From Dictyostelium discoideum (taxonomy: Eukaryota): 64,000 nucleotides of DNA. This document shows positions 10,036 to 63,334 of this stretch, piece by piece; the first letter of the stretch is position 1; every line of letters begins with the position of its first letter. A program made the position numbers and the translations under genes. Below the pieces are notes generated by a model, which saw only the letters and a program-made list of their open reading frames with translations, did not search any database and had not been told where the DNA came from. The stretch spans positions 1 through 64,000 of the forward strand of contig CM000150.2 in the NCBI GenBank assembly GCA_000004695.1, given 5' to 3'.

Positions 10036-12445
10036 TCTGACTCTAGCCAACGGAGATTGGGATCAATCATTCCCCATTCTCCAAGAGGTCAAGTCAGAGA
10101 TTTCACATTGGTTAACAGTTCTAAACCAATGGAATGGAAAAGAAATCAGTCTGTTTCCAAGTTACGACTATGTTCTTACAACCGATGCCTCGGAATCAGG
10201 TGCAGGTGCCACTCTCAAGAAAGGAAACAAGGTAATCAAAACTTGGTCATTCCAGAGGTCAATAACTCAATCAAACATGTCGTCAAATCGTCGAGAAATG
10301 CTCGCGCTGTTAATGGCTTATCAAGCGCTATGTCGGAAACTGAACAACTGCAAGCTGAAGATTCAAACCGACAACACTACCACTCTCTCATACATCAATC
10401 GCCAGGGTGGTCAAATACAAGATCTCTCAGTTCTGTTCGAACAACTTTGGAAACAATGCCTCAAGAAGAAAGTGAACTTGATTGGAGAGCATATTCCAGG
10501 ATTCTTCAATGTAAAAGCCGACCACCTCAGCCGTCTTTCAGAGATGAATCACAAATCATCGACCAGAGTAATCAAGAGTTACAACTGGCAACTGAAGAAG
10601 GAAGTGTTCAATCGCATACAACTTCAATTCGGTCAAATACAGATGGATCTGTTCGCATCTCACCTCAACCATCAAACGAACAACTATTCAACAATCAGAA
10701 TGAATGCACTCCACCTCGATTGGAGTCAATGGAAGCAATGTCTAGCCTTCCCACCACCCATTCTTTTGCCTTCTATCCTGGAGAAGATGAACTCATACAG
10801 TTCGAAGAAGGTTTCTATAATACTGATCTTCCCAATCTGGAGATCAGCAACTTGGTATCCGATGATTCAAGCACAAGTTCCTCGTCATCATCGTCACATG
10901 TTTCCTCAAGTACTGGGAACATTTCAAGAAGTATTGATCAAACAATCAGTAGAGTCGATACCAATCCAGATTCAACAACGTTGGAAACTGGGGATTATTC
11001 AACTTTCCAATCTCATGTAATGTCCTTCGCTCGTACAACAAATACAAAAACAGCTGAGCTGTTAATGAAGTCTTGGGAACCTTCCACTCTCAAAGTATAT
11101 AGCTCCAGTTATACAAGATTCCTCAATTTCTGTACTTTGAACTCTTTGAATCCAGCAAACATTACCTTAGTTGTTTTCATGGATTATCTTACACATCTTG
11201 TTCAAACACAAACCTCCGTAAGCCTTCTCAACAATTAATGGTCATCGCTCTATGTTGAATCAGTTGTTACTCCTTAGGAATCAAACTGATATTGTTAATG
11301 CTCCATTCATTACAAGAATTATGACTGGTATTCACAAATTGCGCCCTTCATCTGCAAAGTATAAAGAGATATGGGATGCAAATCAAGTATTCAAGCACTT
11401 ATCTACTATCAAAGTTATCCCTAAGTACACATACACTGCGCTATTAAACAAGACACTTGTACTCTGTAAAATGTTTGGTTTAGCAAGATCATCAGACTTG
11501 GTGAAGTGGTCGTTCAAAGGTCTCATTATTTCTCTTGACTCAATCAAAGGTCCAGTTATTAATGCTAAAGAACAAAGAATTGGTGTTGTTTCAATCTTAG
11601 AATTAACTTCGTTAGATGATACTAACTCTCAAGTATGCCCTGTTCGCCACCTTGCAACATACCTTAGAGCTTCTAAAGGAAGAAGAAAGCCCCATTCGGG
11701 TGACTCTGTCTTTATTAAGAATGAGGGTGAACCGCTCCAAGTTAATGATATTAACTCAATTGTACTATCAACACTCTCAAAGTCAGGTATTGATATTGCC
11801 AAGTTCAAATCTCACTCTACCCGTTCCGCTATGGCTTCTCTGCTGTTGTCCAATAACGTTCCGTTCCACTTTGTCAAGAAGATGGGTCGTTGGAAATCAA
11901 ACGATACTGTAGATACCTTCTACGATAAAAGAATCATTGGTGAAAAATCTGGGTTTCTTAAATACTGTCGTCCAAATTTCATAATATATATATATATATA
12001 TGATAATATAAATTAAAAATTTAATTTATTAAATTATATTTTATATTAAATATATATATATATATTAGTCCCATCCCACCAGCCCTTAGTCGGAATTCCA
12101 TAAATCAAATTGTTTTTAGTTTTCAGTGCCACTATTTATACGTTTTTATTTTCTTAAAAATTTCGCAAAACTCAAAAAAATAAGAGTTTTCGACCCTTCA
12201 CAACTTTGTGCATAGTGTCGGTTCGGAATTTTTCAGTTTTTCGACCTTGCGCAATGATCGCGTCATTGTGCCGATTCGAAATTTTTACTTTTCTTTTGAA
12301 AATTTTTTATTCTTCGAATGTTCTAGAACATTCTAAAAAATTATCTTAAATATTTGGGAAATTCAAATAAATAAATGTTATTCATAATATATATATATAT
12401 ATTTAATATAAAATATAATTTAATAAATTAAATTTTTAATTTAAA
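10036..12445 (+). mobile_element. DIRS-1 copy D: 3' part (mid-RT to right ITR), frameshifted
   Basis: Starts abruptly at the RT position (SQCLTLANGDWDQ). There is a frameshift near 11200 (THLVQTQTSVSLLNN*). A complete right ITR lies at 12017-12445. Confidence 0.85.
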
Positions 12446-14207
12446 TCATTTTCATCAAAAGAGTAACTATATAATTTAAAACATATAGTTACCAATTGTT
12501 CCATAATTAAAAAATCATCATTTGATATTTGCTTTTTAATTGATATTAAAAGGTAATATAATATTGATCTACTCTCTCTTCCTTTCCTTGTTTTATTTGC
12601 AAATAGTGAAATTGATGGTTTTGGTTTGTTATCTATTATTTTTGCATTTTTTAAATTATTTAAAAAATTTGCAATTTTATTTTTATATTTATCAAAAATG
12701 TAATATAAACATCTTTGTGCGACACCTAATAAAATATTATGTAATATGTCTGGTTGTGTTTTTAAATAATTAATGGACAAAGGTTCGACCCACCCTCTGC
12801 CCACACCTTTGATACCAATATCTTTTGCTTTTTTTTCCCATATTTTTTTTAATTCTATATCAGCATTTAATTCAGCATAATTTGGTTTGGTGGAGTGAAA
12901 ATTTGTAATATCTTCTTGTTTTGTTAATGTACCTGAATGGCAAATAAATAAACCATCTCTTGGTTTGTCACATGTGTGACATGCATATTCATTTGAATTA
13001 TGTCCATTAAGTTTACACGATGCTCTAAATTCTGGAATATCCATTGTCAGTCCAAACGGTATAACATCTATTTGTTCATTTTCAATAATTAAATTAAAGC
13101 CATTACCAAAAAAGATGAAAACAATGCCCTAATTGTTTGATGAAAATTAAGTAACCAATCATTTGGTACTTCAAATAATAATAATTTATTATTTTTAAAT
13201 TCATTTCCAATATAATTTTCTATATCCAGCATTATAGTATAATCTTTCTTGTTTTGACACTGCATACTATCAGTGAATATTCTAAGTAAAACAATTTTAT
13301 TTTTATTTTTATTTTTTAAATCTTTAAATTGTTGACCACTTTTATAATTTGTATAAATTCCAGTTTCAAAATCTGTATCAAAATCTTTTCTTTCAAAAAA
13401 TTGCTTTGATTATTTGTAATAATTTTACTTTGTTCATTTTTACATTTTTTGGTGTTGAAATGTCCATTTCCATGATAAAATTGTTTATAAGAACGGTAAT
13501 ATGCAAGACAAAATGGACATATATTTTTATGCATAATATAATGAATAAAAATATTTTTAAAATTCTTTAATTTTTCTCTGCAATTAATGCATGATATGTT
13601 ATTTAAATTCATTTTGTTTGCTGGGTGGAAATTAAAAATAATTTTTTTTTTTTTTTTTTTCATTTTATTCAAATTTTAGCAATATAGCATTAAAATAACA
13701 TAATATAAAACCCAAGGCAACTGAAACACTTATTTATGATTAATTAATAAAAATAATAATAATAGAATTCAATTGCCACTGAAACAAATGAATAAAGAAT
13801 TAAAATTAATTTGGTTATCTTTTTAGTTTTTTTTTTTTTAATTTTCTTAATTTTTTTTTTTTTTTTTTTTAATAAATTTGAAATAAATAGTGTAATAATT
13901 GATTTGAAATGCATTTAAAATGTATTTTAAAAAATGTAATTAATAAAAGCTTAAAAAAGATTATTAAGTAATTTTAAATTACATTAAAAATAACTTTTTT
14001 AAATTTATTATAAATTGATTAAAACATTAGTTAAAACGCTTTATAATAAATTTAAAATGTCATTTTTAATTTAATTTTAAATGACCTTAAAAATATTTTT
14101 AAAATTACCTTTTTAAAAAGCATCACTAAAGCCAATTTAAAGCAAATTTAAATTGAATTTGCTTTAAATTGGCTTTAAAAATGCATTTTTCTTCGCTTTG
14201 TAACGTA
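12438..14207 (-). mobile_element. Element X copy (i): 5' portion in minus orientation, truncated by the DIRS ITR
   Basis: Minus ORFs 13316..13672 (zinc-finger-like N-terminus CINCREKLKNFKNIFIHYIMHKNICPFC) and 12436..13044 (MDIPEFRASC...CHTCDKPRDG...PDILHNILLG) are homologous to the 719-aa ORF at 39890. A TIR-like end caaagcgaagaaaaatgcatttttaaagcc lies at 14160-14207 on the - strand. Confidence 0.6.
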
Positions 14208-14589
14208 AAAATTAGCATTTTAATCTCTTTAAAAGCGAGGTCCGGATTTCGAAGCCGTTATTTAACGGATAAATATTTTAAATTTTTTTTTTGAATTTTT
14301 GTAAACTATATTAGGAATAAAAATGAAAATAAAAATAAAAAAAAAATATTCTAAAAGAATTACAAACCTTTTTAAATGGCAATGTTCTTTTTTTTTATTG
14401 GCAATGGTTTATATATATATATTTTTTTTTTTTAGATTTTCTAGATTTTCTAGATTTTACATATTATTCTTTATTGGACCTTTCTGTGAATAATTGAATT
14501 AATTATGAACAAAAAAAGTTATTTTTAAAAAGATAGAGTTACCCCGATCAATCTTTTCACGAATAATTTTTCATTTTTCATATTATTTT

Positions 14590-15213: not shown

Positions 15214-17011
15214 TTATAAATTTTTTTTTTTTATTTTAATTTTTTTCAATTTTTTAAAATATATTTTTTTTTTTTTTTGGCTAATAATTCCTTTCTTGAA
15301 AATTTTAACTTTTTTTGGTTTTTGAGGGGAGTCATGTTTTAGGGATCTTAGGATGATCTGTTTGTTATGTTGAATTTTGATTGGAGACAACATGGGTACA
15401 ATGACATTATCTGGATGGTTTGAAAGTGTTTGAGTGACAATTGCTGGTGTATTTGATGGTTTCTGAGTGGCAATTGCTGGTGGATTTGATGGTGCTTGAA
15501 TAACAATGGTTGGTGTATATGATGGTGCTCGAGTAACAATGAATGGTGGATTTGATGGTGCTATGGTAACAATGGTTGGTGAATTTGATGGTGTTTGAGA
15601 GACAATATCTGGTGGATTTAAAGTCTGAACAAAAGATGATGATGTTTTTGAAGTTGGTGGTTGTTGCAAAGCATTTGTCAAATGATGAATATTGGATATA
15701 TGTTCAATAGATGACACAAGTTGACGAGCAACATTCAAAGAAGGATTACAGGTAACAGATTTTTAAATAACATATTGGGGTATAGTAAGTAAACCTAATT
15801 CTTTCCTTAATTGGTTAATTAATGTTGGAGATGTCACATTACCATCCATCAATTTCAAACATTCATGTTTTAATTTTTCATTTTTAAAGGTATGGAAACA
15901 AGGATTTGCTTCATTAGGTAAATTATTATTCAATACATTAATTTTGGAAAAAAAGTCTAAAACTTTTAAAGGATCATCTTGAATCGCGATTGCATTAAAA
16001 TTGTAATTATTAAGATCATACCCAATTTTCTTTGTAAAAGAAAATAATATCTCAACAACTTTTCTATGGTTTGATAGGTGCAAATTTGATGTAAAAGAAG
16101 TTAAATCGTTTGAATCATTTGAATCGTTTGAATCATTTAAATCATTGTACTGTGGTTTAAAATCATGGATTCTTTCCTTTGCTTGATTATAATGAACTAA
16201 TTTATTTGGTCCAATACATATCGGTTTTTTGTTTGTTATTACACAGCGAAGAAAAAACCACCTTTAAATTCGCTTTAAATTAAATTTAAATTTGCTTTAA
16301 AGTCCTGAATTAAAGCAATTTTAAAGGTAATTTTAAGGTAATTTTTAAGGTTACTTTAAAATCACCTTAAAAATTACCTTTAAAATTACCTTTAAAATTA
16401 CCTTTTTAATGGCTTTAAAAGCGAGGTCCTGAGTTCGAAGCCGTTATTTAACGGATAAATTTTTTAAAATTTTTTTTTTAATTTTTCAAAAATTACCAAA
16501 AGGGATTCGATCCCCCGACCCTCTATCAAAGGGTAGTCTCATCAACCATTACACCATTTGATTGCTTTGATGAAAAATTTAAAAATGATAGAATATTTTA
16601 TCCCCATTTTTTTTTTCTAAAATTAGATCTTTTTTATTAAAAACCTTAAATTTATGTTTAAAGGAAATTTAAATTCACTTTAAATCTACTTTAAATATAC
16701 TTTAAATCCTATTTAAAATTAATTTAAAATAAATTTTAAAGGTATTTTTAAATATCTTAAAAATTATCTTAAAAATTACCTTAAAAATTACCTTTAAAAT
16801 CACCTTTAAAATCACCTTTAAAATTGCTTAAAAATTTATTTTAAAGCAAATTTTAAAGGCATTTTTAAATATCTTAAAAATTACCTTAAAAATTACCTTA
16901 AAAATGAATTTTTTAAACGCGGCTTTAAATTCAATTTAAATCCAATTTAAATCAACTTTTCTTTAAATTTGCTTTAAAGGTGCATTTTTCTTTGCTGTGT
17001 AATAACATCCT
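15214..17011 (-). pseudogene. Host-like ORF (about 340 codons) with Pro/Thr-rich 12-aa repeats, split by a MITE 3 codons after its putative ATG and carrying one in-frame TAA
   Basis: ORFs 15763..16083 and 15214..15738 share one frame and are separated by a single TAA. The frame stays open upstream to atgttatta at 17003-17011 (- strand), which is split by the MITE at 16242-16999. C-terminal repeats APSNPPxIVT occur five times. Confidence 0.4.
16242..16999. mobile_element. MITE (758 bp), complete, TIR CACAGCGAAGAAAAAACCACCTTTAAA.../...CTTTAAAGGTGCATTTTTCTTTGCTGTG, flanked by TA
   Basis: TIRs read directly. Flanks are gttatTA|...|TAataaca. The core holds a tRNA-like segment and a GAGTTCGAAGCC box. 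Confidence 0.8.
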
Positions 17012-17927
17012 CTAGAAATTGTATCCTATAGGTTTTTTATTGTTTTGATCATCATTATGTATTTCAATAATCTTGTTCTTTACCAATGTTTTCTTTTTAT
17101 TTAATGTTTCTAATAAAAACCTGTATCACCAATTTTAAATTGTTTTTTTGTTGATTTTGATGACCAATTGTTATTATATTTTTCAATATTTTTAAGAATA
17201 ATTTCTTGTCTTTGTTTATATGATATATCTGGTATACTAACTAACATTTTTCTCCTATATTTACATGAAATCCATTATCTAATGTAGCTGTTTGAAATAA
17301 TAATAATAACTGCATTTGCATTATTTGACCCTTCAATTATTATTGTTAAAATTTCGATTTTACAAAATTATAATTTAAATGTTAGAGTAAGTTTTTTTTT
17401 TAAAAAAAAAAAAAATAATAATAATTAATATAAATAACAAAAAAAAAAAAAAAAAAAGAAATAATAAAAAGTTATCTAATTTTCATTTTTTATTTTTTTT
17501 TATAATTTCAAAAAAAAAAAAAAAGAGATGGGAAACAATTTATAAAAAATCTTTTTTATAAATTTTAAGAGTACTCTTCCTTATGAAAAAGTAGTCCAAT
17601 ACCACGCCAAAAACCTAGCAGCTGCTCAAAGGCTACAAACCGCCCAGCAAGTCAACCTCCATACCACCAAAAGACTATTTGAAGATACTGACGATCTCAC
17701 TCAATCCCTCAAGCAAACATTAACAAAGAAGCGTAAGGAGCTAGACCAAGCACTCAACCACACCCAAAAAGAACTACAGGAGCCAAGAAAATCACATGAT
17801 AGTACGCAGAAAATGGCACAAAAGATCACTTAGAGCTGTACTCTTAATGAAGAACTCGCCAAAGAGCTCCTTAACTAAACCAAGCACAATAAAGATACCA
17901 TCGAAAGGATTATACCCGCTAGGCTAG

Positions 17928-18299
17928 ATGCCCCAGCAACGCCTCAAAGAGGTTACTCAACAAATAAAACACGCACAAGCAAAACAGATCGACGTAACAA
18001 AGGGAATTCAAGAACGATCCCAGCAAATAAAACAGCTTCAAGCCCAAATTGATGGAATAAACAAGCAATACCAGCCTTCTAGTCAAACTAGGCCGCTAGA
18101 AGAAGTGGAGCGTGAGCAGCAAGCACTTGAAGCGAAACTACAGCAACTCCTCAACGATTTTAGGAAAAAAAAAACACAGCTTGAGCAAGCCCAGAACCTA
18201 GCTCAAAAGGCCCAAGCAGATTTAGGGCAAGAAATAGCGCAAGAAAAAGCCAAACAAGATCAATTGGAGGCGACACAAAGAGCTAAAGGAACGCATTGA
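17928..18299 (+). pseudogene. Coiled-coil-like ORF fragment (Q/E/K/L-rich heptads) in island I1
   Basis: ...QIKQLQAQIDGINKQYQ...EREQQALEAKLQQLLNDFRKKKTQLEQAQNLAQKAQADLGQEIAQEKAKQDQLEATQRAKG. Surrounding frames are broken. Confidence 0.3.
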
Positions 18300-18751
18300 A
18301 GAAGGTAAAGTACTCAATGAGCAGGAACAAGAAGCTTGATTGATCAACAGCGCACCCCCAGCTGTTCATAGATCTCAAAGCGCCCGAAGTACCGCATTGA
18401 CTGAAAAAAAGAAAAGCTCTCTTGTATCGAAGAAAAGACGATCCGAGGCAGCTAGCCCATATGCGGCAACAGCAGCACCTTAACCTCAAAGAGAGGATGA
18501 TCGTGCTTCAAAATGCACAAACCATGCGTGAGCAAGCAGCTAGAAGAAAGGTAGAGTTTACTAACTCTAACGCTTCTTGCTGTAAAACAAGAAGTACACC
18601 AATCGCAGCAAACATGAGAGCAAGAAAACAAACGCATCATCGAAGAGAATGTTCAGGGTATAGCAGCGCTCACCAAAGAGCCCCACCAGGATAAAGAAAG
18701 GGAGAGCAGAAGAGACCAAGAAGATGTAAAAAATACAAAGAGAAAACAGGA

Positions 18752-19077
18752 GTGGGAAAACAGGGCATGGTATGTAAATTATGGGATTGGGTCAAAAAAA
18801 ATCCCATTACCGCAACTATTGTAGGGATTCTGGCTGTGGATGCATTGGTGTGTCTGGTTTCTTATGTGGTCCTACCATTATTAAAAAGCAGCATCGCGTC
18901 AACAGGAGCTGGTGGCTTTTTTGGTGGTTGTTTTCAACAAAACCCGGCTTATCTGTCTTTGGCTCATTTGCTGGTGGATGGTTAAACAATAATCTACAAC
19001 GGATTAATAATTGGGGCAATGGAAAAGGCTGGAAAACAAATGATGAGCTAAAAGCACCTTCCAAAAAAGAATTTTAG
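18752..19077 (+). pseudogene. Frameshifted ORF pair encoding two hydrophobic lobes (ITATIVGILAVDALVCLVSYVVLPLL and GLSVFGSFAGGWL)
   Basis: ORFs 18752..18985 and 18781..19077 overlap in two frames. The bilobed hydrophobic arrangement resembles membrane-insertion motifs of intracellular-bacterial proteins (speculative). Confidence 0.25.
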
Positions 19078-20254
19078 CATCTAAAAACCAACTTGGATAG
19101 GAACTCCAAGGGATACAACGTGATCTGCAAGAGGCGAAAAGAAAGTACATAGAGGAACGTGAAAAGGAAGCAGAAAAACCTGAGCAGGAGCAGGAAGAAG
19201 TTTCAGGGTAATAGTTAAACATCCTCGCTCAGCAATTCAATGCTTCTTCTGTGCAGCATGAGCCAATGTAAAACGTGACTAATCTGACCAAGCAGACACA
19301 GGAATTGCTAAAACAATGGGATACAAATAGGATGACCCTTCTCTATTCATGCAAAGCAGTGTTTTGCTAGATCAGATGGATCAGCAGATAGCGCAAGTGG
19401 AGGAAGCTAAAGAAGAGGTGTGCTACTTAAGAAGCAACCTGTCTTATCTGGTGAATTTAAAGGGAATTTACCAACTCAGAAAAGCGGCCCCGCAATCTTA
19501 ACTCGATACACTCATACAAGCCAAAGAGCAGCTATATCAAAGATCATTCGAGATACGCAACAAGAAGCCATGGTATTTGAGCAAGACTTTGAAAAAATAA
19601 CAAAGAAGCTCCATGATTTCTTATCCAGTCATGAGTACGTCCAAGAAGAATTTAAACCAACTACAACTGAGCAGCATGAACCTATCCTCACTAGACCTAC
19701 CATCGACTTGACAAACTCCCTCTCCCTAAGGCTTTAGAAGAATCAATTATGCTGCTTGCCGAAAAGATGAGCTATAATGGTTTAAAATTGGATTTTAAAC
19801 AAGCCAAGCAAGCACTAGAGAAAGATCATACTAATGTAGATTTAAAAGCCTTTAATAGGACTAAAATGGAGTTTAGCAATCATCCTCTACATCAAAAAAC
19901 CATTGAAATTGGTATGCAGAGGCAGGTTGTAAAGCTATCACCGGTTGCATTGGATTTATAGCGCAGGGTGTTAAAGTGGTAAAGGGGGCGAAGACGGAAT
20001 TTAAAACTTTGGCTGAACTAGGATTAAAAGATGGAATAAAAATTTCATATAACAGAGCTTTAGAATTAGGCGAATAATTTTTAGGAAATGATATAAAGAA
20101 TTAGTTCTTGGTAGCGGCAGATATATCTCTGTAGATGGTAAAAGAGCTTTTAAAAAGGGAACTAATGATATTATAGGCACTCGCATCAACTTAGAAACAT
20201 TAACTCTAAATCCTATAAAGAAGGGGAAAATGATGGTTGATCATAATTATTATT

Positions 20255-20551: not shown

Positions 20552-21644
20552 AACAAAAAAATCGGCATTACAGATTATGACAGATCTTGGGTAGAAAAGT
20601 TAAAAATAAATTATTTGTACTTACAACCTGATATTTTACATAACATATTATTGGGTATTGTACAATGGGTTTTAAATTATGTTTTCAAAAAATATAAGGA
20701 TCAATTTACAATTTTTATAGAAAAATTAAAAGAAGCTAAAATTGGGGTGCACCAAAATTTACATCAGCAGAGAGATTTGAAGCACAATTTAGTAAAATTA
20801 AATACCTTTTGACAAACAATACAAACAACCAAGATCAACATAAATTTGTAAGAGTTTCAAAAATATTAATGGCAACATTTTTAGATAATTTTAACAATCT
20901 AAAAGAAAAAGATGATGACAATGATGATTTAATTTTAGGGCAAATAATTAAAAAAAATGAAAATATTTATTTAAAAAATAATATTTTATCAGACATTAAC
21001 TTTCATTACAAAAACATAGAAAATATTCAATTTTATAAATCAATTAAAAATTTAAAAGAAATATATAATGTTGGTGATGGAATTGAAGTTGCCTCAGAAA
21101 ATTCATTAACTGGAAGATGTAGTGCAATAATTATCGCTATTTGTTTAATAGAATTAAAAAATAATAAAAGTGCACATTCAATTTATATACAATACTTTGA
21201 TAAAGATACAGGTGATCAAAATAATAAGCATTTCAAGTATAGTATTTGATAACATAGTAAACACATTAATACCAATACAAATCGATTCGTCCAACTATCT
21301 TATAATTTATAAGTGCCATGACCAATTTTCAATAAGTAAAAAAAAAAATGAAAAAATTTCGTCGAACTTATTTACAAAACTTTTACATTTTTACTTAACT
21401 TTTTGTTTTTTTTTTTATTCCAATTTTCTTTTTTTTTCGGTTGGGAATTATAGGATTTTAAAAAAAAATTTATAAAATATATAAAAAAAATGACTCTCAA
21501 TAATTCTGCATCTTTTGAAACACCAAATAGAAGTGGTAATTATGTAAATAGATCATATATAACTTCACAAACATCACCAATAACACCAATACCATCTCTT
21601 ATTTTAAATCAAACTGATAACTCCATAGATCCACAACGTACTGT

Positions 21645-22423
21645 CACAGCGAAGAAAAAACCATCTTTAAAGCATATTAAAATTTAATTTAAAGCGAATT
21701 TAAAGTCCTGAATTAAAGCAATTTTTAAAGTAATTTTAAAGGTAATTTTTAAGTTTACTTTAAAATCACCTTAAAAATTACCTTTAAAATTACCTTAAAA
21801 ATTAACTTTTTAATCGCTTTAAAAGCGAGGTCCAGAGTTCGAAGCCGTTATTTAACGGATAAATTTTTAAAATTTTTTTTGAATATTTTGAAAAATTACC
21901 AAAAGGGATTCGATCCCCCGACCCTTTATTAAAGGGTAATCTCATCAACCATTAAACTATTTGATTGCTTTGATGAAAATTTAAATATGATAGAATATTT
22001 TATCCCCATTTTTTTGATCTAAAATTAGATGTTTTTTTATTAAAAACCTAAAATTTATATTTAAAGGAAATTTAAATTCACTTTAAATCTACTTTAAATC
22101 TACTTTAAATTCTATTTAAAATTAATTTAAATTCTATTTATAATTAATTTAAAATAAATTTTAAAGGCATTTTTAAATATCTTAAAAATTATCTTAAAAA
22201 TTACCTTTAAAATCACCTTTAAAATTACCTTAAAAATCACCTTAAAAATTGCTTAAAAATTTAATTTAAAGCAAATTTTAAAGGCATTTTTAAATATCTT
22301 AAAAATTACCTTAAAAATTACCTTAAAAATGAGTTTTTTAAACGCGGCTTTAAATTCAACTTAAATCCAATTTAAATCAACTTTGCTTTAAATTTGCTTT
22401 AAAGGTGGATTTTTCTTCGCTGT
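21645..22423. mobile_element. MITE (779 bp), complete, inserted in an element X exon, flanked by GT
   Basis: cgtactGT[CACAGCGAAG...CTTCGCTGTG]GTaagaagac, against the uninterrupted cgtactgttagaagac at 42340. Confidence 0.85.
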
Positions 22424-22545
22424 GGTAAGAAGACAACAAAGACCTCAAAGACCAAATGCAATTCATCCACCAACAACAAATATTATAGAAAAAATATTGG
22501 TGTATGAAACATTGCACAGAAATTGTGTTTCTCAATACTATGCAA

Positions 22546-23291
22546 CTGGTAAGGTCACAGCAAAGAAAAATGCACCTTTAAAGCAAATTTAAAGCAAAGT
22601 TGATTTAAATTGGATTTAAATTGAATTTAAAGCCGCGTTTAAAAAATTCATATTTAAGGTAATTTTTAAGGTAATTTTTAAGATATTTAAAAATGCCTTT
22701 AAAATTTGCTTAAAAATTGCTTAAAAATTTATTTTAAAGGTGATTTTAAAGGTAATTTTAAAGGTAATTTTAAAGGTGGTTTTTAAGGTGATTTTTAAGA
22801 TGATTTTTAAGATATTTAAATAGGATTTAAAGTAGATTTAAAGTAGATTTAAAGTGAATTTAAATTTCCTTTAAATATAAATTTAAGGTTTTTAATAAAA
22901 AAGATCTAATTTTAGATAAAAAAAAATGGGGATAAAATATTCTATCATTTTTAAAATTTCATCAAAGCAATCAAATGGTGTAATGGTTGATGAGACTACC
23001 CTTTGATAGAGGGTCGGGGGATCGAATCCCTTTTGGTAATTTTTGAAAAATTAAAAAAAAATTAAAAAAAATTTTTCCTTTAAATAACGGCTTCGAACTC
23101 AGGACCTCGCTTTTAAAGCGATTAAAAAGGTAATTTTAAAGGTAATTTTAAAGGTAATTTTTAAGGTGATTTTAAAGTAACCTTAAAAATTACCTTTAAA
23201 ATTACCTTAAAAATTGCTTTAATTCAGGACTTTAAATTCGCTTTAAATTAAATTTAAATTTGCTTTAAAGGTGGTTTTTTCTTGGCTGTGG
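22546..23291. mobile_element. MITE (746 bp), complete, opposite orientation to 21645-22423, flanked by GT
   Basis: ggtaagGT[CACAGCAAAG...CTTGGCTGTG]GTaagataa, against the uninterrupted ggtaaggtaagataa at 42470. Confidence 0.85.
22966..23040 (+). other. tRNA-like segment inside the MITE core (not a clean cloverleaf)
   Basis: A perfect 5-bp stem ACCCT/AGGGT encloses the 7-nt loop TTGATAG (GAT in anticodon position, 23005-23007). It is followed by GGGGGATCGAATCCC (T-arm or B-box-like), an acceptor-like 7-mer and a T-run. D-arm and acceptor pairing cannot be completed. Confidence 0.3.
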
Positions 23292-23880
23292 TAAGATAAT
23301 TTTGAAGAAAAAGAATGGTACAGCGGTTCCAAATCTCTTATTTCTTTAATAGTTAAAGCATTGCGTGGTGTTTCTCAAAAGTTCATTGACTCTCCTGATG
23401 AACTTACTTACACTGAAAAGGTTGCTTTTGAATTCACTTCAATACCTCTTTATGCTCCAATAAATTAAATCGTTTAAATAAAAAAAAATTAATATGATTT
23501 CACATACTCAACTTTAATTTTTTCTTTTTTTTTTTAAATCTTTTTTAATTTTTATTTTAAATTATTATTTTTAATTTTTATTTTTAAAGTGATATTATTA
23601 ATATATCTTATCAATTTAACTTTATAATATAAATTTATAAAAGCACTTTTAAATTGAATTTTATAAATATTATTAATAAGAATAATTAATAAGTGTACTT
23701 ATAAAGAGTACATTATAATTATAATTAATAATTACGCTTAATAATTATACTTAATAAGTATACTTAATTAGTATATTTAAAAAGTATACTTTATAATTAT
23801 ACTTATTAAGTACACTTTATAATAGTACTATTTACATTCCTACTTTAAAGATGCTTTAAAGGTTTTTTTTTCGCCCCTGT

Positions 23881-26865
23881 GCAACGGTACCAACAACCGT
23901 TTTCAGAAGAACAAGAAGTAAACTTACCATGGGTGGACGTCTGTTCCACCACAAACAAGTTTGGAAAAAATTGGGTCTTCCAAACTTTTGTCAAGAGGTC
24001 CTAAATGGATTAAAAGTCCATCTACTTCCAAACTTCAAGCCGATGCTAAACCCAATTCCGATTTCAATTCCAGAGGGTCCGAAATCAGATTGCATCACAA
24101 AGGAAGTACAAGACTTGTTATTAGACGATGCCATCGAACAAGTACTTCCAAACCGTTATTCAAAGCGCGTTTTTTACTCCAACGTGTTTACGGTTCCAAA
24201 ACCTGGAACGAATCTACATCGTCCACAATACAGAGACTTATTCCGCTTCGTGTGGAAAGGTTCGCACTACCGTTGGTAAACAATGCCGTTCGGGTTATCG
24301 ACAGCTCCTCGTATCTTTACAATGTTGTTACTTGGACGATCTATTAATCGTCGGTTCAACAAATGAAAAATGTTTAGCCAACCTCAAAAAGACAATGGAC
24401 TTACTTGTCAAACTAGGTTTCAAGTTTAAGCTGGAAAAGAGTGTTCTCGAACCAACTCAATCAATTACATTTCTTGGATTACGAATCGATTCAATATCTA
24501 AGAAGCTTCTTGTTCCCAAAGAAAAGAAAAAAAGTGTCATCAAGGAAATAAGAAACTTTTTAAAACTAGATTGTTGCTCCCCAAGAAAGCTTGCTGGTTT
24601 AAAAGGAAAGCTAATGGCACTGAAAGATGCAGTCATCCCATTCAGACTTTACACTCGTCGAACAAACAAGTTTCACTCTCAGTGTCTAACTTTTAGCCAA
24701 TGGAGATTGGGATCAATCATTCCCCATTCCTCACGAGGTCAGGTCAGAGATTTCGCATTGGTTAACAATTCTAAACCAATGGAAAAGAAATCAGTCTGTT
24801 TCCAAGTTACGACTATGTTCTTACAGTGGTCAACAACTCAATCAAACATGTCATTAAATCGTCGAGAAATGCTCGCGCTGTTAATGGCTTATCAATCGCT
24901 ATGTCGGAAACTGAACAACTGCAAGCTGAAGATTCAAACCGACAACACTACCACTCTTTCTTACATCAATCGCCAGGGTGGTCAGATACAAGATCTCTTA
25001 GTTCTGTTCGAACAACTTTGGAAACAATGCCTCAAGAAGAAAGTGAACTTGATTGGAGAGCCTATTCCAGGATTCTTCAATGTAAAAGCCGACCACCTCG
25101 GCCGTCTTTCAGAAATGAATCACAAATCATCGTTCATAGTAATCAAGAGTTACAACTGGCAACTGAAGAAGGAAGTGTTCAATCGTATCCAACTTCAATT
25201 CGGTCAAATACAGATGGATCTGTTCGCATCTCACCTCAACCATCAAACGACCAACTACTCAACCATCAGAATGAATGCACTCAACCTCGATTGGAGTCAA
25301 TGGAAGCAATGTCTAGCCTTCCCACCACCCATTCTTTTGCCTTCTATCGTGGAGAAGATAAACTCATCCAGTTCGAAGAAGGTTTCTACAATACTGATCT
25401 TCCCAATCTGGAGATCAGCAACTTGGTATCTGATGATTCAAGCACAAGTTCCTCGTCATCATCGTCACATGTTTCCTCAAGTACTGGGAACATTCCAAGA
25501 AGTATTGACCAAACAATCAGTAGAGTCGATACCAATTCAGATTCAACAACGTTGGAAGTTAAGGATTATTCAACTTTCCAATATCATGTAATGTCCTTCG
25601 CTCGTACAACAAATACAAAAACAGCTGAAGTCTTGGGAACCTTCCATTCTCAAAGTATATAGCTCCAGTTATACAAGATTCCGCAATTTTTGTACTTTGA
25701 ACTCTTTGAATCCAGCAAACATTACCTTAGTTGTCTTCTTGGATTATCTTACACATCTGTTCAAGCACAAACCTCCGTTAGCCTTCTCAACAATTAACGG
25801 TCATCGATCTATGTTGAATCAGTTGTTACTCCTTAGGAATCAAACTGATATTGTTAATGATCCATTCATTACAAGAATTATGACTGGTATTCACAAGTTG
25901 CGTCCTTAATCAGTAAAGTATAAAGAGATATGGGATGCAAATCAAGTATTAAAGCACTTATCTACCATCAAAGTCATCCACCAAGTACACATACACTTAT
26001 CTACTATCAAGGTCTCATTATTACTACTGAATCAATCAAAGGTCCGGTTATTAATGCTAAAGAACAAAGAAGTGGTGTTGTTTCAATCTTAGAATTAACT
26101 TCGTTAGATGATAAAAACTCTCAAGTATGTCCTGTTCGCCACCTTGCAACATACCTTAGAGCCTCTAAAGGAAGAAGAAAGCCCCCATTCGGGTAACTCC
26201 GTCTTTATTAAGAATGAGAGTGAACCGCTCCAAGTTAATGATATTAACTCAATTGTACTATCAACACTCTCAAAGTCAGGTATTGATATTGTCAAGTTCA
26301 AATCTCACTCTACCCGTTCCGCTATGGCTTCTCTACTGTTGTCCAATAACGTTCCGTTCCACGTTGTCAAGAAGATGGGTCGTTGGAAATCAAACGATAC
26401 TGTAGATACCTTCTAGGATAAAAGAATCATTGGTGAAAAATCTGGTGGTTTCTTAAATACTGTAGTCCAAATTTCATAATATATATATATATGATAATAT
26501 AAATTAAAAATTTATTAAATTATATTTTATATTAAAAATTAATATATATTATTCCCATCCCACCCGCCCATAGTCGGAATTCCATAAATCAAATTGTTTT
26601 AGTTTTTAGTGCCACTATTTTTATTTTTTTTATTTTCTTAAAAATTTCACAAAACTGTTTTTGCCACTTGGCATAATTATCGCGCCACGTGGAAATTTTT
26701 TACTTTTCTTTCGAAAATTTTTACTTTTCTTTCGAAAATTTTTTTTTCTTCGAATGTTCTAGAACATTCTAAAAAATTATCTTATATATTTGGGAAATTC
26801 TAATAAATAAATGTTATTCATAATATATATATATATATTTTATATAATAAATTAAATTTTTAATT
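23881..26865 (+). mobile_element. DIRS-1 copy F: 5'-truncated at the ORF1 end, heavily degenerate (deletions, stops), partial right ITR
   Basis: Eight short ORFs (23929..26416) all match DIRS proteins in broken frames. The ITR at about 26480-26865 has internal deletions and a duplicated tttcgaaaattttt. Confidence 0.85.
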
Positions 26866-27830: not shown

Positions 27831-27851
27831 ATATTATCATATATATATATT

Positions 27852-27889
27852 CACAGCAAAGAAAAATCCACCTTTAAAGCAAATTTTAA
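27852..27889. mobile_element. Solo MITE or element X terminus (CACAGCAAAGAAAAATCCACCTTTAAAGCAAATTTTA) inside a DIRS ITR end
   Basis: The 38-bp TIR sequence is flanked on both sides by the ITR end motif attatcatatatatatat. Confidence 0.5.
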
Positions 27890-30800
27890 ATTATCATATA
27901 TATATATATATTATGAATAACATTTATTTATTTGAATTTCCCAAATATTTAAGATAATTTTTTAGAATGTTCTAGAACATTCGAAGAATAAAAAATTTTC
28001 GAAAGAAAAGTAAAAATTTCGAACCGGCACAATGACGCGATAATTGCGCAAGGTCGAAAAACTGAAAAATTCCGAACCGACACTATGCACAAAGTTGTGG
28101 AGGGTCGAAAACTCTTATTTTTTTGAGTTTTGCGAAATTTTTAAGAAAATAAAAACGTATAAATAGTGGCACTAAAAACTAAAACAATTTGATTTATTTT
28201 ATTTGGGAATTCCTCCTATATATATTTAAGATACACACACACACAAATTTTATACAAATAATTATTTCTCTTTATTAATTTTTAATATTATTATTTTTCT
28301 CATATTATAATTTTAGATATCAACAATAAAATATGTCTACCACTGTTAATAATAACGAAGCCTCTAGTAGTAGTACCTCTGCCACTAATAGCGCTGAATC
28401 CTTTGATTTAAGAATGAAATCAATGGAGGATCAAATCAACAACCTTTCCTTAGCCTTTACAAGATTCATGAAAGAACCTATGTTCTCTTCTAATACCAAC
28501 TCTCGTAGCCAACCTTCTCATGATAACTCTGACACCGAGAATGAACAAAGTGAAGATGAATCAAGTAACAATGTCGATGTTCCAACCGATTATCAATTAT
28601 CCGATACCTTACTTGGTCAGTACAAACATATGGTAAACAATCAAGGTTTACTCGTCGAAGAAGAATGTATCCTCAAGAAAGATGAGATATCCGAATTGAA
28701 TAAAGTATTCAACTTTCCATCTAACTTCCAAGTGAATGTCGCTCCATTCGGTACACCTGAAGGTATTACTGTATCATCCAACGTCAAGAACAATGATACT
28801 GACTTGTTGATTGTCGAAAAGCGAATCAACGATAGCTTAAAACCTTTGCTTCTTATGTCAAGTATGTTATCATCTGATAGCTCTAATGTCGATGTAGAAC
28901 TCAGAGTGCAATTGTCTTAGCCGTTAATGCTCAAGCATCGCTTAGTCGTGTCCGTCGTAACAACATCGCTAAAGAAATCTATGGTTCTGAAGTACTCTTA
29001 CCAATTAAGATCAAGGATACACCAAAGATGTTTGATGAAACTGAAACTGAACGTGTAAGAAAGCTAGCCAAATCAATCAGAAAGAACAACGAAGCAAAAC
29101 AATCATTGTTAAAATTGAATTATCATTCCAAGTCCAATGCCAAGAAATCAGTTAACTCAAGTGGTAATAACACTACAGGAAACAGTAGTAATAGTAAATC
29201 CAGTAGTGGGAGTAATGGCCGATCTAACAACTTCAATGGATCACCAAGTAATGTTGCATCAGGTAGCAACAATACCAAGTCTGCCAACGGTACCAACAAC
29301 CGTTTTCAGAAGAACAGGAAGTAAACTTACCAGTAGGTGGACGTCTGTTCCACCACAAACAAGTTTGGAAAGAATTGGGTCTTCCAAACTTTTGTCAAGA
29401 GGTCGTAAATGGATTAAAAGTCCATCTACTTCCAAACTTCAAGCCGATGCTAAACCCAATTCCGATTTCAATTCCAGAGGGTCCGAAATCAGATTGTATC
29501 ACAAAGGAAGTACAAGACTTGTTATTAGACGATGCCATCGAACAAGTACTTCCAAACCGTTATTCAAAGCGCGTTTTTTACTCCAACGTGTTTACGGTTC
29601 CAAAACCTGGAACGACTCTACATCGTCCAGTTCTAGATTTAAAAAGGTTAAACACTTACATCAACAACCAATCATTCAAGATGGAAGGAATCAAGAATCT
29701 ACCATCAATGGTCAAACAAGGTTATTACATGGTAAAACTCGATATCAAGAAAGCCTACCTCCACGTTTTAGTAGATCCACAATACAGAGACTTATTCCGC
29801 TTCGTGTGGAAAGGTTCGCATTACCGTTGGAAAGCAATGCCGTTCGGGTTATCGACAGCTCCTCGTATCTTTACAATGTTGTTAAGACCTGTACTTCGAA
29901 TGTTGAGAGATATCAACGTATCCGTCATCGCTTACTTGGACGATCTATTAATCGTCGGTTCAACAAAAGAAGAATGTTTATCCAACCTCAAAAAGACAAT
30001 GGACTTACTTGTCAAACTAGGTTTCAAGTTAAATCTAGAAAAGATTGTTCTCGAACCAACTCAATTAATTACATTTCTCGGATTACAAATCGATTCGGTA
30101 TCAATGAAGCTTCTTGTTCCCAAAGAAAAGAAGAAAGGTGTCATTAAGGAAATAAGAAACTTTTTAAAACTAGATTGTTGTTCCCCAAGAAAGCTTGCTG
30201 GTTTAAAAGGAAAGCTAATCGCACTGAAAGATGCAGTCATCCCATTCAGACTTTACACTCGTCGAACAAACAAGTTTCACTCTCAGTGTCTGACTCTAGC
30301 CAACGGAGATTGGGATCAATCATTCCCCATTCCCCAAGAGGTCAAGTCAGAGATTTCACATTGGTTAACAGTTCTAAACCAATGGAATGGAAAAGAAATC
30401 AGTCTGTTTCCAAGTTACGACTATGTTCTTACAACCGATGCCTCGGAATCAGGTGCAGGTGCCACACTCAAGAAAGGAAACAAGGTAATCAAAACTTGGT
30501 CATTCCAGTGGTCAACAACTCAATCAAACATGTCGTCAAATCGTCGAGAAATGCTCGCGCTGCTAATGGCTTATCAAGCGCTATGTCGGAAACTGAACAA
30601 CTGCAAGCTGAAGATTCAAACCGACAACACTACCACTCTCTCTTACATCAATCGCCAGGGTGGTCAAATACAAGATCTCTCAGTTCTGTTCGAACAACTT
30701 TGGAAACAATGCCTCAAGAAGAAAGTGAACTTGATTGGAGAGCATATTCCAGGATTCTTCAATGTAAAAGCCGACCACCTCAGCCGTCTTTCAGAGATGA

Positions 30801-35587: not shown

Positions 35588-35775
35588 AATTTTTTGATAT
35601 TTATTAACAATTAAAATAAAAAATATATATAAAAATAAATAAAATAAAAGAATGATTTACATACTAAATTTTAATTCTACGATAAGTCTTAACAAATATT
35701 GTTTAATATTATATAAAATTTTTGTTTTAAATAATGCGTTTTATTAAAAAAAAAAAAAAAAAAAAACAAATTTCA
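35588..35775 (+). repeat. Second copy of the oligo(A)-terminated repeat end
   Basis: Shares its first about 50 bp and last about 75 bp plus the A-run with 14590-14900. Confidence 0.4.
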
Positions 35776-35919
35776 TTTTAATTTTAAATCTTATAATTTT
35801 TTTTTTTTTTTTATTATTTTTTTTCACTTGAAAAGGTGTAAACATAGAAGTAGAAGATATCATCTACTTTTCATATTAATTTAATATGAAGTTTTTAACT
35901 TGGAAAAATTAAATTTATT

Positions 35920-37600
35920 GAATATCAAAAAGAGCACCAAAATCAACAAGTTTTGTTTCATTTGATAAATCACTTCTGATTGTTTGGTATTTATTGACTA
36001 AATAGCCAATGACACACCACACATCGTGATGTCTTTCCAAAACTTTATCCATATCTATTGTATCGCTTTTAAATTTATATATAAGTGGTAGACTTGCTAT
36101 TTAAAATTGTTTAATTCTTGTAAATACGTTTTCTATAATTATTCTAATAGATTTTTGATTGTTATCTTTTTATTTTTGGTAATCAGTTCTTTGACCTGAT
36201 GGGATCGTAAATATATTTTTGAAATGTTTTGTTAAACCCCTGAATCTTTTGTCACCAAACACGGAATCAACATTTTCATCTAATGATTTAATAAATTCTA
36301 AATCTCTTTGAAATAAATTAATATCGTTTTTACAACCACCACTTGGGTACCCTATGTGTAATATTTTCCCACTATTAGGACAACAATAAACTAGTAGAGT
36401 TAAAGTTGATTTACATTTTTTACCACTGTATAACATATTTCTTAATTTTTCATTGGTGGGAATAGTTATTTGTTGTTCCGATCCATCCACCACCATTGTT
36501 ACTGTATATTGTTTAACACCATCATTATAGTCACAACTATTTGATTTATCTTTTCTATCATTAAATATTGATTGGAAATTATTAATTGCTAATTGTTTTG
36601 TATATATTATATATTCATCAACATATCTTTTTAAAGTTCTGGTATCAATATTAAAAAGAACTTCCATTATAACAGGTCATGTATAGTGGCGAAAATAAAT
36701 GCAATATAGTTTCTTTCGACCCCTTTTTTCACCATTTTTAACAACCAACTTTTCTAAAATGTAGTCATTGAAATTTTCGTATGATATTCCAATTAAAGAT
36801 AAAAATTTATCCTTTAATTTTTCAATGGATACATTTGTTAAAAATTGTCTTTTATTTTTATTTTTTTGTTTTGATATTTTTGGAATTACCTTTTGGTTTT
36901 CCTTGAACCAACTCTTGTTCATCCTCTTCTTCTTCTTCATCATTTTTTGATTTTGATCTTGTTTTAATTGGTTCTTTTTTATCTTTTGATTTTTCATCTT
37001 TTTCTTCTTTTTCTTTTTCTTTTTCTTTTTCTTTTGGGGAGAATCTTCTTATAATTGTCTCCATGGTTTGTGTATATTGTTTCAATTTTACTGGTGAATT
37101 TACATTTGATATTTGTTTTGTTTGTTGAGTCGATTCTATCTGTTGAATGGGTTCAATGTTTTCAATGGTTTCGATTGGTTGTTTGGACTGATTTTGATGT
37201 TTGAACTAGCTGTGATTCATCTTTGAAGAAATTTAGTTTTAATTCATTTGTTCTTTTTCTTTTCCACCTTTCTTCACTTGAGAGTGAACAATTATTCATA
37301 TTTTATTCAACAAAGTTCAATTTAAAAGTTAATTCTTCAACTTTTTTTGATAATTCTTCTATCTGTTTTTGTTTATCATTAAATTGTTCAATTGTTGGAA
37401 ATCTTTCAATTTCATTTTCATCTAGTTTAACATTTATACATTTATGAACATGTTCTTGAATTAATTCAATCGTTTTGGCTGAAAATTCAATTACACAATT
37501 ACATATAAAACATTCAGTTGTAAACTTTTTCATATTAAATTTTATATTGTAAAACAAAAAAAAAAATTTAACAAAAAAAAACAAATTTTTTTTTTTTTAT
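35920..37600 (-). mobile_element. Harbinger/PIF-like DNA transposon remnant (DDE_Tnp_4-type transposase), degenerate
   Basis: Minus ORF 36170..36667 carries MVVDGSEQQITIP (DG-hip), GYPSGGCKNDINLFQ (pGS-hD) and VFGDKRFRGL (GDsgY) in the order and spacing typical of PIF/Harbinger DDE transposases. The N-terminal piece 36677..36997 is in another frame. A small C2HC-like ORF lies at 37303..37584. Confidence 0.55.
36170..36997 (-). pseudogene. Harbinger/PIF-like transposase, split by a stop or frameshift
   Basis: See parent feature. Two adjacent frames are separated by a stop. Confidence 0.5.
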
Positions 37601-39884: not shown

Positions 39885-39889
39885 ATCAT

Positions 39890-42049: not shown

Positions 42050-42192
42050 AAAAAATTCGTTGAACTTATTTACATAACTTTTACATTTTTACGTAACTTT
42101 TTCTTTTTTTTTTTTCTTTTTTTCCAATTTTCTTTTTTTTCGGTTGGAAATTATAGGATTTTAAAAAAAATTAAAAAAATATTATAAAAAAA

Positions 42193-42482
42193 ATGACTCA
42201 CAATAATTCTACATCATTTGAAACACCAAATAGAAGTGGTAATTATGTAAATAGATCATCTTTAACTTCACCAACATCACCAATAACACCAATACCATCT
42301 CTTATTTTAAATCAAACTGATACCTCCATAGGTCCACAACGTACTGTTAGAAGACAACAAAGACCTCAAAGACCAAATGCAAGTCATCCACCAACAACAA
42401 ATATTGTAGAAAAAATATTGGTGTATGAAACATTGCACAGAAATTGTGTTTCTCAATACTATGCAACTGGTAAGGTAAGATA

Positions 42483-42530
<48 letters not shown>

Positions 42531-44770: not shown

Positions 44771-44789
44771 TTTCAAGTAGCTTTAAACT

Positions 44790-62660: not shown

Positions 62661-62759
62661 TTAATTTATCGTATTTCTATGTAAGCTATAGACACTTTGA
62701 TAATTTTCATTGAAAATAGCTATAATATGAATGTTAAAAAACTTCCAAGTAAAAAAAAA

Positions 62760-63290: not shown

Positions 63291-63334
<44 letters not shown>

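Follow-up and report, generated by a model that had tools for sequence, protein, structure and literature searches.

Short, probably DDT-type elements inserted into a larger DNA transposon of Dictyostelium discoideum: target-site duplications, empty sites and autonomous relatives

Two short non-coding repeats interrupt one copy of a larger DNA transposon, here called X, in the window (the whole 64,000-nucleotide stretch of D. discoideum DNA that was analysed), and such insertions are nothing unusual for DDT transposons. The window itself is a centromere-type repeat cluster of Dictyostelium, dense in DIRS-1. With high confidence, we assign the repeats, which are about 758 bp long, to the DDT group of Dictyostelium DNA transposons, as non-autonomous (MITE-type) members that would move by cut-and-paste, with a CMC-type transposase given in trans by elements of the X′ type, a sister family of X. 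Judged on its ends and subterminal repeats, the short element has its closest autonomous relative in X′ and not in X. Here, we describe the copies of the short element, the duplications and empty sites that mark their insertion, and the autonomous elements to which they are related.

Copies and anatomy of the short element

Every copy of the short element that was listed in an earlier note on this DNA exists in the window, although several boundaries have been revised. MITE1 (21645-22424, plus strand, 780 bp) begins where the note had placed it and ends at 22424 rather than 22423; it lies in X copy ii (20555-23881, plus strand), where it interrupts the second gene in exon 1. MITE2 (22556-23290, minus strand, 735 bp) is inserted exactly at the GT of the 5′ splice site behind this exon, and the range given before, 22546-23291, had taken in 10 bp of flank and one base of the duplication. 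The central observation of the note, namely two independent insertions in opposite orientations within one X copy, with empty sites visible in another, is borne out. MITE3 (16242-16999, plus strand, 758 bp) is hosted by a degenerate LTR-retroelement integrase remnant. The truncated and solo pieces are equally real, with ranges now mended. A truncated MITE at 44128-44790 on the minus strand interrupts the N-terminal exon of an X′ transposase gene, of which a fragment beginning MNLNNISCINCREKLKNF is left at 44031-44127 on the plus strand and is cut by the MITE at 44128; the matching exon is uninterrupted at 13612-13406 on the minus strand and has its empty site near 13515/13516. Another truncated MITE (51582-51985, minus strand), whose outer 2 nt are missing or mutated, ends abruptly at the outer edge of a DIRS-1 inverted terminal repeat. 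A solo terminus of 42 bp (27852-27893, plus strand) sits within the (AT)n stretch that ends a DIRS-1 terminal repeat, with a direct repeat of approximately 17 bp (ATCATATATATATATAT) on either side, while an internal fragment of 93 bp (14208-14300, plus strand) corresponds to consensus positions 153-245.

The consensus of the family is 758 bp, and its copies are 92-99% identical; MITE1 shares 93% identity with the consensus-like 758-bp copy m3, and between MITE3 and copies from other strains the figure is approximately 99%. The 28-nt MITE terminus, allowing up to three mismatches, has eight matches in the window and none in 100 shuffles. Features of the sequence agree with the earlier classification as MITE-type non-autonomous DNA transposons: there is no open reading frame (ORF) of at least 40 aa (the longest internal ORF has 37 aa), the element has terminal inverted repeats (TIRs) of 51 nt with 75% complementarity and CACAG...CTGTG ends, and insertion is accompanied by 2-bp target-site duplications (TSDs). 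The arms are formed by long subterminal arrays of TTTAAAGGTAAT-type repeats in both orientations, where the measured period is 11-12 bp and not the 10 bp reported before. The element is strongly self-complementary (DNA fold z = -13), and its arms give sub-threshold matches to MITE-derived miRNA models, e.g. mir-548.

The core is the best-conserved part in comparison with a divergent variant, and its matches to X and X′ are confined to runs of A and T. In MITE3, part of the core (16493-16563, minus strand) resembles a degenerate tRNA and has an A-box-like and a B-box-like motif; a second B-box-like motif, GAGTTCGAAGCC, is found at about 16425-16440 on the plus strand. The tRNA-like segment scores 14.8 bits with the Rfam tRNA model, which is under the gathering score of 29, and is found by ARAGORN solely at an 80% threshold; at default thresholds, ARAGORN and Rfam detect neither a tRNA nor any other family of RNA across the window. 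Since the same relaxed ARAGORN setting also gives a spurious AT-rich 'tRNA', we treat this signal as a resemblance, and any function of the core is putative.

Target-site duplications and empty sites

The tally of complete elements covers the window together with seven loci (L001 to L007) taken from further assemblies of D. discoideum. Perfect 2-bp TSDs flank 13 of these 14 elements (11 MITEs, two X and one X′). The earlier note had made its reading depend on consistent 2-bp flanks at other copies, and such flanks are present at 10 of the 11 MITEs and at all three autonomous elements. The duplications in the window are GT for MITE1 (21643-21644 and 22425-22426), GT for MITE2 (22554-22555 and 23291-23292) and TA for MITE3; those at the other loci are TT and TT (L001), TA (L003), and GT, TA, TA and TA (L007). 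The sole exception among the complete MITEs, at 17010-17766 of L007, has mismatched flanks (TC/TA). The X elements are flanked by CA (L003) and TA (L002), and the X′ element by TG (L004).

Base-precise empty sites are seen for five MITE insertions (MITE1, MITE2, MITE3 and two in L001), in paralogous copies or other strains that are not proven alleles. When both MITEs and one GT each are removed from X copy ii, the remainder is colinear across both sites with X copy iii (39885-43825, plus strand), which is not interrupted by MITEs. Empty site 1 follows position 42347 (GT at 42346-42347), beside a single substitution that reads T in copy iii and A in copy ii. Empty site 2 follows 42476, and here the GT (42475-42476) also forms the 5′ splice site of the intron. 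Between copies ii and iii, the sequences to the left of the two sites are 93% identical over 935 bp and 97.7% identical over 131 bp. The right flank of site 2 has only 8 exact bases (14/16) before copy ii is interrupted by a separate deletion of approximately 525 bp, equivalent to about 42485-43010 of copy iii, which adjoins MITE2. Filled and empty copies differ at site 2 by more than the insertion, although the junction is precise. The empty site of MITE3, GTTAT-TA-ATA, is seen in L004 at 13600-13720, both L001 MITE insertions have precise empty sites when compared with the window X 5′ region, and L005 and L006 contain X copies without a MITE. Exact-protein look-ups with two window ORFs, aimed at the allelic locus in other strains, returned no record.

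Of six MITE pieces in the window, three lie within X or X′, elements that together account for about 16% of its length (p ~0.06, binomial). The earlier proposal that the family targets its own parent is consequently suggestive only. The additional loci were chosen for containing X or X′ and are thus biased.

Autonomous relatives and their transposase

X copy ii is 5′-truncated beside a DIRS-1 repeat, and its 3′ terminus, ending in CGCCCCTGTG, is at 23881. Copy iii is also 5′-truncated and has the end of its 3′ TIR at 43825; it carries a transposase ORF (39890-42049) and a second gene of three exons encoding approximately 256 aa (42193-43179), the exons of this second gene (ORF2) having been read off the frame-0 translation. 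The 5′ end of a further X copy (62256-64000, plus strand) carries the TIR CACAGCGGCGAAAATC, has 13-bp subterminal repeats and contains the first transposase exon from 63591. On the minus strand of this copy, at about 62520-62690 (X positions ~265-435), lie three tRNA-3′-half-like/B-box repeats, comprising the B-box GGGTTCGATTCCC and two related repeats. The L003 copy of X has a length of 5410 bp, and a composite X reaches 5568 bp. X′ is approximately 5.0 kb, with about 50% protein identity to X; its 5′ part is found at 12439-14200 on the minus strand, with the terminus at 14200 (CAAAGCGAAGAAAAATGC) and transposase exons at 13612-12439. The second gene encodes 256-275 aa in X and X′.

Both autonomous elements have termini in common with the MITE and the same TSD length of 2 bp, and they differ in how close the likeness is. 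Over the terminal 40 nt, X′ matches the MITE at 33-35 positions and X at 27; the whole window contains 13 40-mers that match at 27/40 or better, and these are taken as element termini. Both ends of X′ are 70-75% identical to the MITE arms over 300-500 bp (70% for the 300-bp subterminal array at 13902-14200), while the subterminal repeat of X is a 13-bp unit, AAGTATACTTAAT, unlike that of the MITE. The earlier statement that the TIRs alone are common to the short and autonomous elements is correct for X and incorrect for X′. Because termini and subterminal arrays are common to X′ and the MITE, X′ (probably DDT-A) would be the likeliest supplier of transposase, and not X (~5.5 kb, probably DDT-B). 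Given the CACAG ends and 2-bp TSDs of X, cross-mobilisation of the MITE by X is possible as well.

The transposases of X and X′ carry the signature D-D-C(2)C-H(3)H-E, as in the CACTA/Mirage/Chapaev group. The residues D194, D272, C292-H-T-C295, FHLLLHY (H(3)H) and E523 are conserved across the X and X′ subfamilies, and align with those of remote relatives (hhalign). These relatives were found by a profile search with the transposase and carry Pfam Transposase_21 and DUF4218; the putative link of the transposase to TNP2-type proteins is indirect, as in this remote set one member is above the Transposase_21 cut-off and two have sub-threshold DUF4218 matches. Alignment of the transposase with this set by hhalign gives 99.7% probability (E 3.7e-26, 396 columns). 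Pfam has no direct match for X or X′ proteins, a profile search of PDB sequences gave no match, and the AlphaFold model of ORF1 (pLDDT 39.6) is unusable and lends the fold no support. The CMC(T) signature has been described together with 5′-CA..TG-3′ termini and 2-5-bp TSDs (PMC12730594); the CACAG...CTGTG ends and 2-bp TSDs agree with this description, and the signature in X and X′ in turn fits these ends and duplications. A DDE transposase of the CACTA/EnSpm-Mirage-Chapaev (CMC) group would make a staggered 2-bp cut that generates the 2-bp TSDs, and the second-gene protein may bind the subterminal repeats as an accessory factor, by analogy with En/Spm TNPA.

The earlier note had derived the MITE from X, and a version of this view is the rival that deserves most attention, unlikely as we consider it: the MITE would be an internally deleted or replaced derivative of X that is mobilised by X, and its insertions would be true self-targeting of the parent. 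X and the MITE have in common, besides their CACAG ends, partly matching termini and 2-bp TSDs, the motif CTTTAAAG, and insertion into X is repeated, with two cases in the window, two in the L001 X 5′ region and one further L001 insertion in the same X exon. The derivation is not upheld, however, since the termini of X′ fit much better and X′ has a subterminal repeat family in common with the MITE, whereas X has a different repeat; furthermore, the MITE core matches neither element, and MITEs are also found in X′, DIRS-1 and LTR-element remnants.

Far less probable still is that the copies multiplied within the centromeric repeats through segmental duplication, recombination or gene conversion and not through transposition, in which case the empty sites would be non-allelic differences. 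The cluster is indeed heavily rearranged, as seen in the deletion beside MITE2, the truncated copies and the one mismatched flank pair, but ten MITEs in unrelated hosts have identical terminal bases and a 2-bp duplication of their own, where we estimate that a chance dinucleotide match at this composition occurs at about 0.1 per element. With five base-precise empty sites in addition, spread by duplication only is rejected. The least credible reading is that of a tRNA-derived SINE-like retroposon, with an RNA polymerase III transcript made from the A/B-box core and copied via RNA. The tRNA-like cloverleaf and B-box-like motifs lie in a relatively conserved core, and TRE5-A does target A/B-box motifs of DDT-B when it integrates (PMC9012585). 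Against this, the tRNA-like segment is central and not 5′, its scores are poor, and there is no A-rich or LINE-derived 3′ tail. The perfect CACAG/CTGTG inverted termini and fixed 2-bp duplications effectively rule out a SINE.

Relation to DDT and other known transposons

Very probably, the 758-bp family corresponds to a DDT element that has been catalogued and is as such already known. Glöckner et al. reportedly catalogued the DDT family, with DDT-A, DDT-B and DDT-S, in 2001 (Genome Res 11:585). Judged by size, centromeric location and the tRNA-like A/B-box, X probably corresponds to DDT-B, X′ to DDT-A and the small element to DDT-S; these names are provisional and based on indirect evidence, and DDT-S is presumably the ~0.8-kb non-coding member. 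A short 'S' member of DDT exists by name (PMC4559204). The host is the same, as every protein match is from D. discoideum, and so is the location: DDT accounts for approximately 20% of the sequence in DIRS-1-rich centromere-type clusters such as that in the window, where it tends to sit among its own kind in nested insertions that are a known part of cluster make-up (PMC2665215). The DDT-B consensus is 5471 bp with an A/B-box motif near one end (PMC9012585), while X is 5.4-5.6 kb with such a motif in its first ~430 nt. The DDT transposase is said to have no likeness to known families (PMC5633606), and the X and X′ transposases likewise have no direct match. Compared in this indirect way, by description, DDT shows no difference from X, X′ and the MITE.

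The nested insertion itself matters little, as DDT nesting is already known (PMC2665215). Of modest use are the clean 2-bp duplication rule, the assignment of the short element to one of a pair of autonomous sister families, and a CMC-type DDE assignment for transposases that reviews call unclassifiable (PMC5633606). The tRNA-like A/B-box modules in the short element and X bear on why DDT-B has this motif (PMC9012585). A bolder proposal, which we regard as doubtful, is that DDT represents a divergent amoebozoan branch of CMC with 2-bp duplications, and that the A/B-box of the MITE and X is a functional TFIIIC/pol III site. If true, DDT elements might serve as portable decoys that draw in the TRE retrotransposons, which target tRNA genes, or might act as landmarks in the chromatin of centromeric clusters.

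The MITEs of the Tc1/mariner group (Stowaway, Made1/mir-548) are likewise small, AT-rich, hairpin-forming and non-autonomous, with 2-bp duplications. The TSD in Tc1/mariner is only TA, whereas GT, TT, CA and TG are also found here, which rules out membership; the Tc1/mariner transposase is of the DD34-37E/D type, in contrast to the CMC-type transposase and CACAG termini seen here. CACTA/En-Spm with its non-autonomous dSpm/I derivatives, and the wider CMC group, provide another parallel in organization. Unlike in CACTA/En-Spm, neither of the two proteins encoded by X and X′ scores above a Pfam threshold, no similarity to En/Spm TNPA is detected for the second gene, and the host is amoebozoan; the plant CACTA TSD is 3 bp, compared with 2 bp here and in Mirage. 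In both systems, however, the elements have CAC...GTG termini and short TSDs, the autonomous element has two genes, subterminal repeats of approximately 12 bp form arrays in both orientations, and the non-autonomous partners retain only the ends.

Insertion sites and 2-bp duplications

Copies of the small non-coding element (MITE) were located by BLAST of three proposed full copies and by a search for its 28-nt terminus, which has eight matches in the window versus none in 100 shuffles. Complete elements occupy 16242–16999 (plus strand; MITE3), 21645–22424 (plus) and 22556–23290 (minus); truncated ones lie at 44128–44790 and 51582–51985, a 93-bp fragment at 14208–14300 and a solo 42-bp terminus at 27852–27893. 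Every complete, partial and solo-terminus copy named in the earlier note is present where it was placed, to within 1–10 bp. An N at 44613 falls within the B-box of a truncated copy.

X, a transposon of approximately 5.5 kb with two genes, is uninterrupted in its copy iii (39885–43825) and hosts two MITEs in its copy ii (20555–23881). Deleting both insertions, along with a single GT apiece, leaves a copy ii that is colinear with copy iii across both sites, in agreement with the earlier claim that GT was duplicated at each. In copy iii coordinates the first insertion point (site 1) follows 42347; the second (site 2) follows 42476 and is the 5′ splice site GT that closes exon 1 of the second gene of X. 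The junctions are colinear, with 8 exact bases in the right flank of site 2 (14/16 overall), but the two copies differ by more than the insertions: a single substitution directly adjoins site 1, and copy ii carries an independent deletion of approximately 525 bp beyond the site 2 flank.

Exact-protein look-up in four additional assemblies, labelled D. discoideum or ‘cf. discoideum’, supplied seven further loci (L001–L007), and flanks were read for every complete element in these loci and in the window. The MITE is flanked by TA (at MITE3, as the earlier note had it), GT and GT in the window, TT and TT in L001, TA in L003, and GT, TA, TA and TA in L007; X is flanked by CA (L003 8615–14024) and TA (L002 6434–14226), and its sister family X′ by TG (L004 5218–10251). 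With a mismatch (TC/TA) solely at the MITE at L007 17010–17766, perfect 2-bp duplications are found in 13 of the 14 complete elements, and the consistency on which the earlier claim depended extends to other copies. Base-precise empty sites were found for both L001 insertions (within the window's own X 5′ region) and for MITE3 (in L004), while the empty site of the 44128 copy is the uninterrupted exon 13612–13406; the X copies of L005 and L006 contain no MITE at all. The perfect duplications, together with the base-precise empty sites, make transposition with a fixed 2-bp duplication well established.

Anatomy and parentage

The MITE consensus, derived from eight copies including those of other assemblies, is 758 bp long. 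Copies are mutually 92–99% identical, with a divergent variant in L003 at approximately 83%. The element has 51-nt terminal inverted repeats, contains no ORF of at least 40 aa and, as single-stranded DNA, folds far better than shuffled sequences (z = −13). Its arms are arrays of 11–12-bp units, CTTTAAAATTAC / AATTTTAAAGGT, not of the 10-bp unit described previously. The core is the best-conserved part (90–94% versus 58–88% in the arms, comparing the L003 variant with the main family) and holds, on the minus strand (16493–16563 in MITE3), a degenerate cloverleaf of 71 nt in which TGGTGTAATGG resembles an A box and GGATCGAATCC a B box; a further B-box-like motif lies approximately 60 nt away on the opposite strand. 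The cloverleaf scores 14.8 bits against the Rfam tRNA model, versus a gathering score of 29 (E = 6.3 over 4227 families, or approximately 0.0015 for tRNA alone by our own calculation), and ARAGORN detects it solely at the 80% threshold.

There are two autonomous sister families, X and X′, and the earlier note had derived the MITE from X. The X transposase is the family of protein record P0001; the element measures 5410 bp in L003, and a composite put together from pieces in the window comes to 5568 bp. Its termini are CACAGCGGCGAAAATC... and CACAGGGGCGAAAAAAAA..., and its subterminal arrays repeat a 13-bp unit of the AAGTATACTTAAT type. The X′ transposase, the family of P0017, is approximately 50% identical to that of X; the element is 5034 bp in L004, its termini are CACAGCAATGAAAAATGC...TTTAAAGC, and each end carries 300–500 bp of TTTAAAGGTAAT-type repeats, a type that X′ shares with the MITE, whose arms these ends match at 70–75% identity. 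Of its 40 terminal nucleotides, the MITE has 33–35 in common with X′ versus 27 with X. Just 13 40-mers in the whole window reach at least 27 matches to the MITE terminus, and these are taken to be element termini. The MITE core (consensus approximately 165–430) has no match in X or X′ beyond A/T runs. Because its termini and subterminal repeats are closer to those of X′, the MITE is, judged by sequence, the partner of X′, and its insertions in X would therefore have hit a relative, not its own parent.

In the window, X′ is represented by a 5′ part (12439–14200, minus) and an N-terminal exon fragment (44031–44127) cut by the MITE at 44128. The C-terminus of gene model P0021 reads FKGNFKGHFKG..., which is the subterminal repeats translated and hence an annotation artefact. 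The X copy at L002 6434–14226, from a ‘Dictyostelium cf. discoideum’ assembly, lies outside a repeat cluster, adjoins ordinary genes, for S-adenosylmethionine synthase and a lipid A acyltransferase-like protein, and has grown to 7.8 kb via longer subterminal arrays. The X 5′ subterminal region (window 62520–62690, minus) has three tandem tRNA-3′-half-like repeats. In one of them an A-box-like TATAGCTTACATAG is followed by GGGTTCGATTCCC, a near-perfect B box; this probably corresponds to the A/B-box motif of DDT-B, which is reported to attract TRE5-A integration (PMC9012585).

Target choice and genomic setting

The window, AT-rich and broken by numerous GC-richer repeats, is a centromere-type DIRS-1 cluster of D. 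discoideum. Its large ORFs are DIRS-1-type and LTR-type retroelements, and the one long non-retroelement ORF has homologues that are all from Dictyostelium discoideum. Such clusters are reported to consist of approximately 49% DIRS-1, 19% DDT DNA transposons and 10% skipper; DDT accounts for approximately 20% of centromeres and prefers its own kind (PMC2665215). A stretch of approximately 2.3 kb (17900–20240; 42% GC, strong AT skew of 0.28), with an AT-rich region on one side and a DIRS-1 repeat on the other, has ORFs without significant Pfam match, such as 17928–18299 (Q/K-rich, coiled-coil-like), and no second copy in the window at 100 bp or more and 80% identity or more. A 165-aa ORF (36170–36667, minus) in an AT-rich block (35600–37700) adjoining an LTR-element remnant matches Pfam DDE_Tnp_4 (PIF/Harbinger-type transposase) above the cut-off (E = 2.8e-10).

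Three of the six MITE pieces in the window lie inside X or X′, which make up approximately 16% of the sequence; the self-targeting proposed earlier is suggestive only (binomial p approximately 0.06, own calculation). The fetched loci are biased toward X and X′ and so are unusable for enrichment. Post hoc, three independent insertions in different X copies fall within 140 bp of exon 1 of the second gene (after 42347, after 42476 and at L001 12594, equivalent to window 42387), one of them precisely on the splice-donor GT, and this exon may be an insertion hot spot. Also post hoc, close pairs in opposite orientation occur twice, at window 21645–23290 (131 bp apart) and L001 8043–9599 (39 bp apart, 99.2% identical), which may reflect chance, local hopping or a favoured arrangement. 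Another strain shows the reverse of the window's nesting: at L001 6043–6699 | 6700, internal MITE sequence (consensus approximately 655) runs directly into the 5′ terminus of X, so X has inserted into a MITE.

The solo terminus lies within the (AT)n end of a DIRS-1 terminal repeat, as first described, but is 42 bp long rather than 38. Across 27835–27915 it is bounded on both sides by ATCATATATATATATAT of the DIRS-1 repeat end. With this direct repeat of approximately 17 bp in place of a 2-bp duplication, the terminus looks more like the product of a deletion or repair than a simple insertion. The 51582 copy ends abruptly at a DIRS-1 repeat end.

Relation to known transposons

The reading of the small repeats as transposons is right, and the MITE family has almost certainly been catalogued already. 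The 2001 D. discoideum repeat catalogue reportedly defined the DDT class (DDT-A, DDT-B and DDT-S). X agrees in size and A/B-box with DDT-B, whose consensus is 5471 bp and includes an A/B-box motif (PMC9012585), and DDT-S is named as a DDT member (PMC4559204). It is probable that X is DDT-B and, by elimination, that X′ is DDT-A and the 758-bp element DDT-S. Just two points might be new: that the DDT transposase is assigned to the CMC (CACTA/Mirage/Chapaev) type, and that the tRNA-like core is conserved.

The X and X′ proteins have no Pfam matches, in agreement with the published view that the transposases of Dictyostelium DNA transposons are unlike anything known (PMC5633606). When 1.8 billion representatives were searched with a profile built from 13 transposase family members, weak relatives (E 1e-8 to 1e-3) emerged that match its C-terminal half. 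Ten of these were scanned: Transposase_21, the CACTA-element family TNP2, exceeded its Pfam cut-off in one, and DUF4218 gave sub-threshold matches in two. Profile–profile comparison with twelve of the relatives (99.7% probability, E 3.7e-26, 396 columns) reaches the N-terminal catalytic region, absent from the original matches, and aligns the landmarks RIFSD194G, LTMD272IPE, C292-H-T-C295, DILHxILLG, FHLLLHY and SAExFE523, all six of which are conserved in both subfamilies. Together these landmarks form the D-D-C(2)C-H(3-4)H-E signature that marks the CACTA/Mirage/Chapaev(-Transib) clade, members of which have 5′-CA..TG-3′ ends and 2–5-bp duplications (PMC12730594). An AlphaFold model was too poor for use (pLDDT 39.6), and a profile search of PDB sequences returned nothing. 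The second gene of X and X′ may have a TNPA-like role; En/Spm has a two-gene layout with subterminal repeats of approximately 12 bp in both orientations, and X and X′ resemble it in their two genes and their approximately 12-bp subterminal repeat arrays in both orientations.
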